Source: an uncultured delta proteobacterium
GTDB lineage: Bacteria; Myxococcota_A; Polyangia; Polyangiales; Polyangiaceae
Length of the DNA: 64,000 nt
Assembly: GCA_963782055.1 (NCBI GenBank)
Contig: CAWAIF010000003.1
Location: 2,400,001-2,464,000, forward strand
Reading direction: 5' to 3'
This document shows positions 18,851 through 35,576 of this stretch, in pieces. A program made the position numbers and the translations under genes. The notes beneath the pieces are model-generated. The model made no database searches, was not told where the DNA came from, and was given only the letters and a program-made list of their open reading frames with translations. Each line of letters begins with the position of its first letter. Within the stretch, counting starts at the first letter, position 1.

Positions 18851-18966
18851 AGCACCCCGTGTGCCACCCCCCCCTTCCACAGAATCCCGCTGAAACGTCG
18901 AACGGCGAGCGTGCTTGCAATCCGACGTTTGGTGTCCGGGGACAGGGGGAGGGGACAGGGGGGACA
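18851..18966 (-). promoter_or_regulatory. Conserved upstream element 1: sigma-54 box, palindromes and GGACA array
   Basis: TGGCACACGGGGTGCT (18866-18851); AAACGTCG..CGACGTTT inverted repeat around GCGAGCGTGCTTGC; TGTCC at 18933, GGACA at 18940/18953/18962. Confidence 0.75.
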
Positions 18967-18989
18967 GTCGCGAGGGTAGCGCGAGAGCC

Positions 18990-19075
18990 GCGCGCCACAT
19001 CGTGCGGACCCGCGCGCCATGCGGACCCCAGCGCGCCATGCGGACCCCAGCGGCGGCGCGCCATGCGGACCCCAG
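18990..19075. repeat. Imperfect 19-bp tandem repeat GCGCGCCATGCGGACCCCA (3 copies plus 1 degenerate)
   Basis: Copies at 19012, 19031 and 19056; degenerate copy at 18990. Confidence 0.85.
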
Positions 19076-19263
19076 CAGCGGCGGAAGGGGCGAGGCGGGT
19101 GGCGTCCTGCCGGTCAGCGGCGCGCCGCTCGGACCCCGCCGGCCGGGCTCGGAGAAAGCGGGACTCTTGGAAATGGTTTGCCTTTCGCGTCGGCGTCTCC
19201 TAGAAGACGCACGCAAATCGCGGGCGCTTCACGCGGCGCGGCGCGCACAGCCGGAGTGCGATC

Positions 19264-19692
19264 ATGGCCCTGGAACGAACCCTCTGCATCATCAAGCCCG
19301 ACGCCGTCGAGAAGCATCACGCCGGCTCCATCCTCGCGCTCCTCGAGAAGGAGGGCTTCGAGATCCTCGCGCTCAAGCGGCTGCACCTCTCCAAGCCCGT
19401 GGCCGAGGGGTTCTACGCGGTGCACAAGGAGCGCCCCTTCTTCGGCGAGCTCGTCACCTTCATGACCCGCACGCCCGTCGTCGTCGCGGTGCTGCAGCGT
19501 GACGAAGCCGTGACGAAGTATCGTGCGGTGATGGGCGCGACGGACCCCGCGAAGGCGGACGCCGGCACCATCCGCAAGCTCTACGGCTCGAACGTGGGAG
19601 AGAACGCGGTGCACGGCTCCGACTCGCTGGCCAACGCCAAGATCGAGATCGCGTACTTCTTCGCCGCGTCCGAGGTCTCTCCTCAGGCGTGA
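19264..19692 (+). CDS. ndk: Nucleoside diphosphate kinase
   Basis: [36 protein letters not shown]. Confidence 0.98.
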
Positions 19693-19788
19693 TCGTGATA
19701 CAGTGTCGTCGCCGTCCGTGGGTGGGATGGGCGGTGTCACGCGCTCACCGGCACCTTGGCTTCGGCCCGCGTGCGTGCTTGTCCACCC

Positions 19789-32166: not shown

Positions 32167-32334
32167 CAGCCGGCGCTCGACCCGCAGATCGTTAGCGTGC
32201 ACATGAACAGGCGCCTGTCCGCGTCGTCGTGGGGGCCTGGCGGGCGTGGCGCCGCCCGCGCGTGGCGGGCGACGCGGCGCCCAGCGCGTCCCGGGCTCGG
32301 CACGAGCGGGCAGTCGTGCTAAGCCACATCCCCC

Positions 32335-34009
32335 ATGTTCGACGCCCTCTCCAAAGGCTTCAAACAGGCCAAGAACCGCCTCGCCGGCCTGACCGAGCTC
32401 AACGAGCAGAACATCGAGACCGCCCTGCGGGAGGTCCGCCTCTCCCTGCTCGAAGCAGACGTCGAGCTCGGCGTGGTCAAGGCCTTCCTCGCCCGCGTCA
32501 AGGACAAGGCCCTCGGCGAGGTCGTCCGCGTCAAGGCGCGGCGGCAGGACGGCGAGACCGTCAAGGTCTCCGCCGCCGACCAGTTCGTCAAGATCTGCCA
32601 CGACGAGCTCGTCGACTTCATGACGGCGGAGGGCGAGGCCCTCCACTTCGCCGACAAGGGCAAGATCACCGGCATCATGATGGTGGGCCTCCAGGGCTCC
32701 GGCAAGACCACCACCTGCGCCAAGCTCGCCCACCTCCTGCAGAAGGAAGAGCACAAGCCCATGCTCGTCGCGGCGGACATGCAGCGCCCGGCCGCGGTCG
32801 AGCAGCTCCAGATCCTCGGCAAGAGCATCGACGTCCCCGTCTTCAACGTCGCCGGCGCCACCCCGCTCGAGATTCTGCAAGGCCGCGCCCGCAGAGGCGA
32901 AGTCCAAGGGCTGCGACGTCATCATCTACGACACCGCCGGCCGCCTCGCCATCGACGAGGCCCTGATGGACGAGCTCGCGGACATCAAGGACGCCGTCAC
33001 CCCGCAGAACATCTACCTCGTCGTCGACGCCATGATCGGCCAGGACTCCGTCAAGGTCTCCCGCGGCTTCAACGACCGCCTCGACCTCACCGGCGTCGTG
33101 CTCACCAAGCTGGACGGCGACGCCCGCGGCGGCGCGGCCCTCAGCATCCGCGAGGTCACCGGCGCGCCGGTGCGCTTCATCGGCATGGGCGAGGGCACCG
33201 ACAAGTTCGAGGAGTTCCGCCCCGACGGCATGGCCAGCCGCGTGCTCGGCATGGGGGACGTCGTCGGCCTGATGAAGGACTTCGAGCAGGTCGTCGACCA
33301 GAAGAAGGCCGCCGAGGATGCGATGCGCATGCTCGAGGGCAACTTCACCCTCGACGACTTCCTCGAGCAGGTCCGGATGATCCAGAAGATGGGCTCCCTC
33401 AAGGACCTCGTCGGCAAGATGCCCGGCATGGACATGCTCCCGGAGGGCATGGCGGGCAACCTGGACGACCGCGAGCTCGTCAAGGTGGAGGCCATCATCT
33501 CCAGCTTCACGAAAGCCGAGCGCCGCGATCCGGAGGTCCTCATCCGCGAGCCGGAGCGCGCCAGGCGCATCGCGAAGGGCTCCGGCACCAAGCCGGGCAA
33601 GGTCCTGCAGGGCGACAGGGTCATCGAGACGCCGGCGGAGGTGGCCGTCACCGAGCTCGTCCAGCGCTTCCTGATGATGAAGCAGATGATGGACGGCCTG
33701 GGCGCCAACATGGGCCTGCTCGGCAAGATCCCCGGCATGAAGAACCTCGCCATGGCGCGCAACATGCAAAAGATGGCGAAGGGGGGCGGCATGCCTCCGG
33801 GGATGGGCGGCTTCCCCGGCATGGGCGGCTTCCCCGGAATGCCCGGCATGGGCTTCCCCGGGATGGGCATGCCAGGCATGGGCGGGATGGGCGGCGCCGG
33901 GGGAGGGGAGAGCCTCACCAAGATGAAGTCGCTCTCCGAGAAGGAGCGCAACGCCAAGAAGGCGCAGCGCAAGCGGGAGAAGGAAGCCCGGAAGAAGGGG
34001 CGCCGGTAG
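32335..34009 (+). CDS. ffh: Signal recognition particle protein Ffh (apparent +1 frameshift near 32873)
   Basis: GLQGSGKTT in frame 1; DTAGR, TKLDGDARGGAA and Met-rich M domain in frame 2; removing one T from GAGATTCTGC restores a single ORF. Confidence 0.95.
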
Positions 34010-34067
34010 CGCCGCTCGTGATGGCGGGTGGGGGGCCGTCGGCCAGCTCGGCGTGCGGCGTCCGATC

Positions 34068-34188
34068 GCGAGCGTGCTAGCGGTCGCGACGCCGGCGGCG
34101 GGCGGGTGTCCGGGGACAGGCCGCAGGGACACCCCGGACAGGTCGTCGCGGGGAAAACCGGCGCGTTTCTGGCGGCGTGCTTCGTGCA
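34068..34188 (+). promoter_or_regulatory. Conserved upstream element 3 (inverted relative to the gene) plus sigma-54-like box
   Basis: GCGAGCGTGCTAGC 34068-34081; TGTCC 34107, GGACA 34114/34127/34136; CGGCGTGCTTCGTGCA 34173-34188 (GG-N10-GC); GTG start 12 nt after GC. Confidence 0.65.
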
Positions 34189-34199
34189 AATCCCCGGTC

Positions 34200-35576
34200 G
34201 TGACCATCTCCTGGCGCTTCGACCGCGGGACCCTGCTCGTTCAGGGTGACGCCGCATCCGGCTGGCCCGGCGTGGTGTGGGATCCTCGCACCCAGAACCT
34301 CCGCGCCGCCGCCCATCGGTACCGCGCGCTGCGGCGCGCCGCGACCACCTCCGGCGTCTCCTTCACCGACCCCATCCCCGCGCGCTGGTCCCGCTCCCGG
34401 CAGTGGGCGCCCCCTTCGCTCCGTCCCTACCAGCGCGACGCGGTCATGGCGTGGCTCGGCCAGGGCAAGCGCGGTGTCATCGTGCTGCCCACGGGTGCGG
34501 GCAAGACGCGGGTGGCCCTCGCGGCCGCCGCCGCCGTGCGCGGCCCGACCGCCGTCCTCTGCCCCACCCGCGTCCTGCTCGGGCAGTGGCTCGAGGCGCT
34601 GAAGCAGGTCTACGCCGGCCCCCTGGGCGTGCTCGGTGATGGCGAGTCGCGCATCGAGCCCGTCACCGTCATGACCTTCGAGAGCGCCTTCCGCCGCATG
34701 GATGCGCTGGGAGATCGCTTCGCCCTGCTCGTCGTGGACGAGGTCCACCACTTCGCGTCCGGCCTCCGCGCCGAGGCGCTGGAGGCGTGCGTCGCACCCT
34801 ATCGGCTCGGCCTCACCGCCACGGCGCCGGAGGCCGCCAGCGCCGGCGAGCTCACGCTCGATGACCTCGTCGGCCCGGTCGCCTTCGCCATGTCCATCGG
34901 CGATCTCAGCGGGACACACCTCGCGGCCTTCGACGTCGTGCGCCTGCGCGTCGGGCTCACCGCCGCCGAGCGCGCCGAGTACGTGCGCATGGCGCGCCCG
35001 TACCTCGAGCTGCAGGCGGCGCTGCGCCGTGCCACGCCGTCGATCGACTGGGAAGGGACGATGCGCGCCATGGCGTCCACGGCGGACGGGCGTCGCGCCA
35101 TCCGCGCGTGGCAGGGGGCCGTCGCGCTCGCCGCCTTCCCGGAGGAGAAGCGCCGCCTCGCCGCCGCGCTGATCGAGCGTCATCGCGACGACAAGACCCT
35201 CGTCTTCGCGTCGCGCGCGTCCGACGCCCGGACCGTCTCGTCGGACAGCCTGGTGCCCGCCATCACCGCCGAGATCGTGCGCGAGGAGCGCGACGCGGTC
35301 ATGGCCCGTTTCCGTGACGGCACCCTCCGCTGCGTCGTCTCCGCGCGCGTGCTGAACGAGGGCGTCGACGTACCCGACGCCAACGTCGCCGTCCTGCTCG
35401 GCGGGGCGCTCGGGGTGCGCGAGCAGGCGCAGCGGGTGGGGCGCGTGCTCCGGCCCGGCCCCGGCAAGCGGGCCATCGTCTACGACATCGCGACCGCGGG
35501 CACCGTCGACGCGGATCGCGCCGACCGCAAGTGGAGGAGATTTGCTGCCCAGACCCTACCTGCAATGCCAGGGTGA
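34200..35576 (+). CDS. XPB/Ssl2-like superfamily II DNA helicase
   Basis: LRPYQ, LPTGAGKT, DEVHH, LGLTAT, LNEGVDVPDA, QRVGRVLR. Confidence 0.9.
   Translation: MTISWRFDRGTLLVQGDAASGWPGVVWDPRTQNLRAAAHRYRALRRAATTSGVSFTDPIPARWSRSRQWAPPSLRPYQRDAVMAWLGQGKRGVIVLPTGAGKTRVALAAAAAVRGPTAVLCPTRVLLGQWLEALKQVYAGPLGVLGDGESRIEPVTVMTFESAFRRMDALGDRFALLVVDEVHHFASGLRAEALEACVAPYRLGLTATAPEAASAGELTLDDLVGPVAFAMSIGDLSGTHLAAFDVVRLRVGLTAAERAEYVRMARPYLELQAALRRATPSIDWEGTMRAMASTADGRRAIRAWQGAVALAAFPEEKRRLAAALIERHRDDKTLVFASRASDARTVSSDSLVPAITAEIVREERDAVMARFRDGTLRCVVSARVLNEGVDVPDANVAVLLGGALGVREQAQRVGRVLRPGPGKRAIVYDIATAGTVDADRADRKWRRFAAQTLPAMPG

Follow-up and report, generated by a model that had tools for sequence, protein, structure and literature searches.

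A phased TGTCC-N2-GGACA array at sigma-54-type promoters: a likely competence-activator site of Polyangiales, carried by a multi-copy marR-like cassette

Three intergenic regions in one stretch of a Polyangiaceae genome share an array of short repeats, in which a TGTCC-N2-GGACA palindrome is followed by two more GGACA half-sites within 34 nucleotides (nt). What does such an array do in front of two marR-like genes and of an operon for an XPB-type helicase and a Bax1-like nuclease? The stretch (the window) has 64,000 nt, comes from an uncultured delta proteobacterium and corresponds to C3:2400001-2464000, where C3 is a contig of the host genome (G000, 7.58 Mb, approximately 72% G+C). Homologues of its marR-like protein also point to a Polyangiales myxobacterium as the probable host, being labelled Polyangiaceae in the rows that name an organism (2 of 120 listed rows). 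The original prediction read the arrays as sites for an activator of sigma-54 promoters. All three were found where they had been placed (Table 1), and the 34-nt pattern had 0 matches in 100 dinucleotide shuffles of the window with two mismatches allowed. The GG-N10-GC boxes, their distances to the start codons and the inversion of the third array relative to its gene, as compared with copies 1 and 2, were also as described. Gene starts are approximate, because genes were called with our own codon-score script.

The array is not a three-copy element, as had been supposed. The full 34-nt pattern is matched 29 times in the host genome, in 20 cases at a marR-like gene. For the 12-nt palindrome TGTCC-N2-GGACA there are 69 matches, 52 of which are no more than 260 nt away from the start of a marR-like gene. 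On contig C3, the palindrome with a 2-nt spacer occurs at 63 sites, 61 of which are intergenic (intergenic DNA makes up 14%), and each other spacer length from 0 to 11 gives 1-13 sites. Background frequency or a location inside coding sequences had been named as what would speak against a regulatory role; the genome scan gave neither. That the pattern rather than the sequence is conserved holds only in part, as copies 1 and 2 belong to one cassette and are 84% identical over 681 nt.

The arrays stand at fixed distances from predicted sigma-54 promoters. An array at most 100 nt from an intergenic GG-N10-GC box was found for 50 of 3471 boxes. From these, 20 distinct promoters of genes other than marR were chosen by eye, as was the box where two were possible; the rejected remainder consisted of weak pairs, marR arrays read backwards and further hits to a site already counted. 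The palindrome is present in 18 of the 20 promoters. The 21 distances to the GG all fall at 43-45 nt (11), 55-56 nt (4) or 65-67 nt (6), in bands that are 11 nt apart, with arrays in both orientations. In the marR cassettes, the distance is 66-69 nt in 40/58. The signal is carried by the palindrome and its phase, not by the half-site count.

The spacing between box and start codon is equally narrow. The ATG lies 12-14 nt past the GC in 56 of the 58 cassettes, and in relatives it lies 11-14 nt past the GC in 17/21 comM and 10/15 radC boxes. Given the usual sigma-54 start position, this suggests leaderless transcripts at these promoters. The two positional features expected of a sigma-54 regulon, a fixed box-to-start distance and phased upstream sites in either orientation, were thus both found, which supports the idea of helically phased upstream activator sites forming a regulon; we did not find this regulon in print. 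Among intergenic GGCAY-N7-GC boxes of the host genome in general, 145/861 have an ATG 11-14 nt past the GC, compared with 36 at a control offset (cassettes included). Leaderless sigma-54 transcripts may be common in the group.

The targets outside the cassette point to DNA uptake. In G000, the array precedes comM followed by recA, comEC, an 89-aa open reading frame (ORF) followed by a ComEA-type helix-hairpin-helix gene, ssb and radC (ComM, ComEC, the ComEA-type protein, SSB and RadC assigned by Pfam/NCBIfam). Uptake and processing genes (comEA, comEC, comM, ssb and radC) are therefore found under one motif, as a competence regulon would have them. The XPB-Bax1 operon of the window is also among the 20 promoters, and so are six Uma2 nuclease genes and three ISCR/IS91-type transposase genes. 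The array is no general mark of mobile genes, because other multi-copy families of the host genome with 8-13 copies (transposases, a group II intron reverse transcriptase, an integrase operon and two small ORF families) lack it.

Several of these targets gave observations of their own. The 89-aa ORF (G000:C3:966309-966575; L091:810-1076, minus strand) is matched in 31/41 genomes of the order and in 1/50 outside it, with up to six matches in one genome (G036). It has no Pfam or NCBIfam family and matches unnamed Myxococcota clusters; it is a candidate DNA-binding competence protein. Two sites with a full array and a sigma-54 box, C3:6428614 and C3:1338803 (both minus strand), have no clear ORF directly downstream and no Rfam match. 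The regulon could possibly include small RNAs or peptides encoded at these sites; when five loci were compared with Rfam, no family reached its gathering score. A second XPB-type helicase (C3:5411586-5412944), with a Bax1-like gene nearby (5408647-5409864), is widespread in the order and has no array. The ISCR-type transposase at C3:4409623-4411592 has approximately 40 other sites on C3 and a sharp right end. Its end module of approximately 100 bp is also found alone, whole or halved, in clusters.

To follow the motif beyond the host, we used 41 genomes in all, G000 and 40 relatives including six congeners. A scan with the exact G000 pattern plus box, as first envisaged, matched only 9/40 relatives, and several of these matches fell in coding DNA. 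Exact matches are few because the motif varies, with changes in both arms: the six congeners have TGGCC...GGCCA (spacer 1-3), G007 and G023 have TGTCC...GGACA, and many others have TGGCG...CGCCA. Promoter pairs of one genome have the same variant in 67/75 cases against a shuffle mean of 27.5, in a test that took the box with the most half-sites and in which kin are not independent. A second test used windows anchored at the start codon, with no choice of box, at the 30 best loci per gene. At least two half-sites were present for comM in 27/28 (shuffled 13.8), comEC in 10/11 (4.8), the comEA operon in 21/29 (13.9) and radC in 21/28 (14.2). Three control gene sets gave 10/21 (8.1), 10/26 (11.1) and 4/12 (4.2). 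In the same test, 11/14 exact palindromes have complementary arms. Array-to-box distances in relatives peak at 33-34, 44-45, 55-57 and 65-66 nt. The XPB type of the window has close matches in six other genomes, no congener among them; in two of these, G011 and G034, the sigma-54 box of the orthologue is preceded by the TGGCG-type variant of the host genome. For the second XPB paralogue, which is more widespread, half-sites are at background level.

The array is likely to be a competence-activator site, because a real motif stands at fixed distances before DNA-uptake genes and recurs as variants in relatives. Taken alone, its role as the upstream activator site of a sigma-54 competence regulon is well favoured by these patterns. 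The fuller statement is probable, and held a little less firmly: one sigma-54 activator would run the natural-competence regulon, and the marR cassette, Uma2 and ISCR genes, which carry its site, would be co-expressed.

Several points weigh against this reading, beyond the choices by eye and the limits of the variant-sharing test given above. The activator was not found among 44 candidates in G000, and the evidence reveals no mechanism by which the cassette moves. In G000, dprA, comF, the pilin genes and a second recA have no array; the pilus genes, dprA and comF are hence missing from under the common motif. A link to DNA uptake is missing for a HEPN pair, genes for a trypsin-like and an exported protein, and the two sites without a clear ORF. 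The ssb box and array are found in G000 only (1/29), and windows at ssb, too, somewhat exceed the shuffled value (15/27 vs. 9.4). Box and motif together were seen, by eye, in just 3/7 XPB orthologues of the window type. A bare count of at least three half-sites is unspecific, as its score of 25 was equalled by one of six decoy words.

For the activator search, the 44 sigma-54 activator candidates of G000 were compared with 42/47 matches in G001 and 50/54 in G007 (some stretches contain two). No recognition helix tracked the motif variant across these three genomes or in two wider tests, and well-conserved orthologous candidates have identical recognition helices. Two candidates followed across all 41 genomes did not track the variant. 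PilR is a sigma-54 activator. It was rejected because no array is present in the pilin promoter next to the PilR-like gene; the recognition helix of the PilR-like protein does not track the variant either. This promoter, upstream of C3:3097086, has an inverted repeat of its own (TGAC-N7-GTCA type) before its sigma-54 box, a candidate PilR site. In Acinetobacter baumannii, the PilSR two-component system is tied to natural transformation (PMC8578077).

The predicted regulon resembles known systems in different ways. Nla28-type sigma-54 regulons of Myxococcus xanthus (PMC9765219) also have half-site clusters upstream of a -24/-12 box, several per promoter. The Nla28 half-site, CT(C/G)CG(C/G)AG, differs from the present one; in G000 the targets are DNA-uptake and recombination genes, inverted and direct sites stand at a tight 11-nt phase, and the activator candidates yielded none. 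In Haemophilus, CRP-S control covers comM, comEC/rec2, comEA/comE1, radC and ssb (PMC5809987). The Sxy/TfoX-CRP-S regulon of Pasteurellaceae and Vibrio thus has the target set comM, comEC, comEA, radC and ssb in common with G000. It differs in that G000 has sigma-54 boxes with upstream arrays, with dprA, comF and pilin outside the regulon and XPB-Bax1 and mobile genes inside. By analogy, the regulon resembles the Nla28 type in form and the CRP-S type in content.

The two marR-like genes of the window were thought to be paralogues under common control. Both carry the array, but they are 2 of 58 copies of a cassette that is very probably mobile. Its layout is array, inner palindrome, sigma-54 box and marR-like ORF. 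The host genome holds 58 full-start copies (60 family matches) in three subfamilies. The 40 rows of the main subfamily form a single G000-only clade with support 98 in a quick tree that includes two misframed rows (G006_L375 and G003_L376) and excludes four broken or short G000 copies. In 20 cassette pairs, identity begins at the left edge of the array or within approximately 30 nt of it, and ends at the stop codon or in a variable tail. The encoded protein has a MarR winged helix, as seen from a Pfam match above cut-off, 67 PDB sequences at E<=1e-5 and fold matches of its model; no catalytic domain was detected in it. Like MarR-family regulators, it combines winged-helix sequence and fold with a palindrome in its own promoter. 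It differs from them in its 58 dispersed copies, a predicted leaderless sigma-54 promoter, an extra C-terminal region and the lack of a conserved neighbouring target gene.

The family is found in 9/41 genomes (G000, the six congeners with 5-17 matches each, G007 and G023), with 4-60 matches per genome. Insertion sites differ between genomes. Nine of 26 cassette loci of relatives sit between genes that are adjacent in G000 without a cassette, 3/26 have the upstream gene in common with a G000 copy, and in one spacer the cassettes of G001 and G004 point in opposite directions. The cassette sites of the window are empty in congeners: no cassette follows sucD in 4/4 or alaS in 5/5 evaluable congeners, and in G001 sucD is directly followed by ndk. 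The arrays of cassettes mostly have the host's variant; mixed arrays occur in G003 and also among the smallest subfamily of G000. A different REP-type (repetitive extragenic palindromic) inverted repeat lies in the spacers that hold cassettes in G000, after sucD in G005 (L316) and after alaS in G004 (L319). The spacer after alaS holds an unrelated gene in three congeners. Because different occupants are found in the same spacers, the sucD and alaS spacers look like insertion hot spots.

Insertion sequences and miniature inverted-repeat transposable elements (MITEs), including ISCR/IS91, also show high copy number, recent near-identical copies and empty sites, and three ISCR-type genes of G000 share the array. 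The cassette has the many copies and empty orthologous sites of such elements. It has no transposase, no second end, no terminal inverted repeats and no ISCR right-end module; only the left-end array is in common with the ISCR genes. We found no target duplication: flanks are unrelated, and the longest shared flank word is 5.5 nt, as in shuffled pairs (5.5 nt; n=58). We did not class the cassette as an insertion sequence because transposase, ends and duplication are all missing. Mobilisation of the cassette by an ISCR transposase, whose genes share the left-end array, is possible.

A GCRAGC near-palindrome had been noted beside each array. It is present in the window as described, starting at 18905, 29518 and 34068, 14, 14 and 25 nt from the array. 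We found it to be the core of a separate 38-bp dispersed repeat, which is present in 43/43 main-subfamily cassettes and alone at 28 other G000 sites, 27 of them intergenic (none in a reversed-sequence control). The core is near only 1/20 non-marR promoters, that of window copy 3. The helical-turn difference of 14 against 25 nt, which had been pointed out, therefore remains a single case. Four congeners (G001, G004, G005 and G006; L337-L352) have a different, perfect 22-bp inner palindrome at 13-55 sites per genome, which is absent from G000. Some copies of it lie in coding sequence, for example in the variable loop of a dapE-like gene in L344, and they are often paired, 170-350 bp apart. Within G000, the palindrome type tracks the protein subfamily. 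The inner palindrome probably serves the MarR-like protein as operator or is left over from lost cassettes. REP/REPIN-RAYT systems (PMC5581495) are alike in having short dispersed intergenic palindromes tied to one gene family. In G000, the gene is multi-copy, MarR-like and without an HUH domain, and no RAYT (Y1 HUH transposase, PF01797) was found in this genome, which is 97% complete, with a positive control matched in 6/14.

How these parts could work together may be outlined. Activator dimers would bind two neighbouring sites, either two palindromes or a palindrome and direct half-sites. By looping, the bound activator would reach the sigma-54 holoenzyme, and the transcripts started would mostly be leaderless. 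In some lineages, XPB-Bax1 may have been recruited for processing incoming or branched DNA. The cassette would enter new short intergenic spacers most likely via recombination during competence, not by a transposase of its own, and its copies would be homogenised through gene conversion; this route is our best guess. The inner palindrome, placed between array and promoter, is likely bound by the MarR-like protein, which would thereby damp its own expression.

With the regulon reading kept, the marR cassettes may be a host-beneficial expansion, such as a dosage-amplified regulator or a nucleoid protein whose targets during competence would be the dispersed inner palindromes, and not selfish. 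This is a real possibility, if a minority one. It fits a ratio of nonsynonymous to synonymous substitution rates (dN/dS) of 0.21 (39/43 main-subfamily copies, first 160 codons), which indicates purifying selection on the ORF. It also fits the stand-alone palindromes of G000, the congeners' own palindrome and the tracking of palindrome type with subfamily. However, purifying selection is equally expected for a selfish gene, and co-inheritance proves nothing because palindrome and ORF are physically linked. The varying copy numbers and sites between genomes, and the frameshifts in some copies, also argue against it.

As a tentative and still doubtful picture, competence in Polyangiales would be run by a sigma-54 activator whose site drifts between lineages. 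The cassette would be a new, transposase-free selfish gene that retains only the current competence enhancer of its host, a promoter, an operator and one ORF. It would copy itself into intergenic spacers via the uptake and recombination machinery, to 58 copies, and be expressed exactly while DNA uptake and recombination are on.

The same activator sites could instead serve a LexA-independent DNA-damage or general stress regulon, as the original prediction had proposed. XPB-Bax1, a recA, ssb and radC are among the targets, and dprA and comF have no array. The recA1 gene of M. xanthus is induced late by UV and lacks a LexA box (PMC7029660). It has its own promoter there, unlike the comM-recA pair suggested for G000, whose recA may not be its orthologue. 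Against this, conservation is highest for comM, comEC and the comEA operon, XPB and ssb are linked to the array in certain lineages only, and the second recA has no array. The set of comEC, comEA, comM-recA, radC and ssb looks more like competence, and we consider a damage regulon unlikely. Damage could be the inducing signal of the competence regulon.

The prediction had also offered an alternative, in which small cassettes end at the array and a recombinase binds there. It can be widened to a transposase, and would make the sigma-54 link secondary. One part of it stands: near-identical marR copies start exactly at the array, as do two ISCR copies, and some sites are empty in relatives. However, the cassette lacks a matching right end and a target duplication, no Y1 transposase was found in G000, and the array also stands, in phase with promoters, before nearly universal single-copy genes (comM in 41/41 and comEC in 40/41 genomes), so that this explanation is quite improbable. 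MarR dimers bind palindromes, and 52/69 palindromes adjoin marR-like genes; even so, the MarR-like proteins are very improbable as controllers of the regulon, because it is present where no family match was found (variants before com genes in, for example, G011, G012, G025 and G028), genomes with a similar family differ in variant, and sigma-54 needs an AAA+ domain, which is absent from MarR proteins.

Table 1. Positions in the window of the arrays, promoter boxes, inner palindromes and genes discussed
Feature	Position	Strand	Remarks
Motif array 1	18933..18966	+ (unstranded in feature list)	left edge of cassette 1, 67 nt from GG; predicted activator sites
Motif array 2	29470..29503	- (unstranded in feature list)	left edge of cassette 2, 67 nt from GG; alaS stop 10 nt before
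Motif array 3	34107..34140	+ (unstranded in feature list)	palindrome 55 nt from GG of XPB promoter
Sigma-54 -24/-12 box, cassette 1	18852..18865	-	by sequence; ATG 13 nt past GC; predicted leaderless
Sigma-54 box, cassette 2	29571..29584	+	by sequence; start codon 13 nt past GC
Sigma-54-like box, XPB-Bax1 operon	34174..34187	+	by sequence; GTG 12 nt past GC
marR-like ORF, cassette copy 1, 198 aa	18242..18838	-	Pfam MarR_2 1e-11; 1 of 58 copies; model matches MarR folds
marR-like ORF, cassette copy 2, 198 aa	29598..30194	+	Pfam MarR_2 5.9e-9; 84% identity to copy 1
38-bp inner palindrome, cassette 1	18893..18930	unstranded	separate dispersed repeat; candidate operator of MarR-like protein
38-bp inner palindrome, cassette 2	29506..29543	unstranded	
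Degenerate stand-alone inner palindrome, past ffh stop	34058..34092	unstranded	outside activator array
XPB-type helicase	34200..35576	+	XPB_DRD, ResIII, Helicase_C; NF045503 match below cut-off
Bax1-like nuclease (DUF790)	35542..36699	+	PF05626 2e-72; Bax1 models matched below cut-off

Elsewhere in the window, three short imperfect tandem repeats of approximately 22-26 nt lie between cassette 1 and ndk (19000-19080). The ffh gene (32335-34009) is broken into two frames near 32880-32960, which is probably an assembly frameshift because ffh is essential. Two neighbouring near-duplicate genes for Gly-rich exported proteins are present at 41286-44267.

No description of the motif, the regulon or the cassette was found in the literature; promoter tables in supplements that we did not see could bear on novelty. 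The available parts of PMC12288472, PMC7029660, PMC12378983, PMC8578077, PMC4790341 and PMC5581495 contain none of the motif or cassette. We found no paper on the control of DNA-uptake genes in myxobacteria. A scan of named genomes gave one locus, in Streptomyces, which is unrelated.

Myxobacteria are hard to engineer. The motif, the promoter geometry and the target list give a handle for finding the activator and the inducing condition, and natural transformation could thereby become usable in this group. They also name candidate competence proteins, namely the small order-restricted ORF before comEA and XPB-Bax1. Three unrelated multi-copy gene families, the marR cassette, Uma2 and ISCR, are wired to the same predicted enhancer, and one of them is a 58-copy regulator-like gene that shifts position without visible mobility apparatus.

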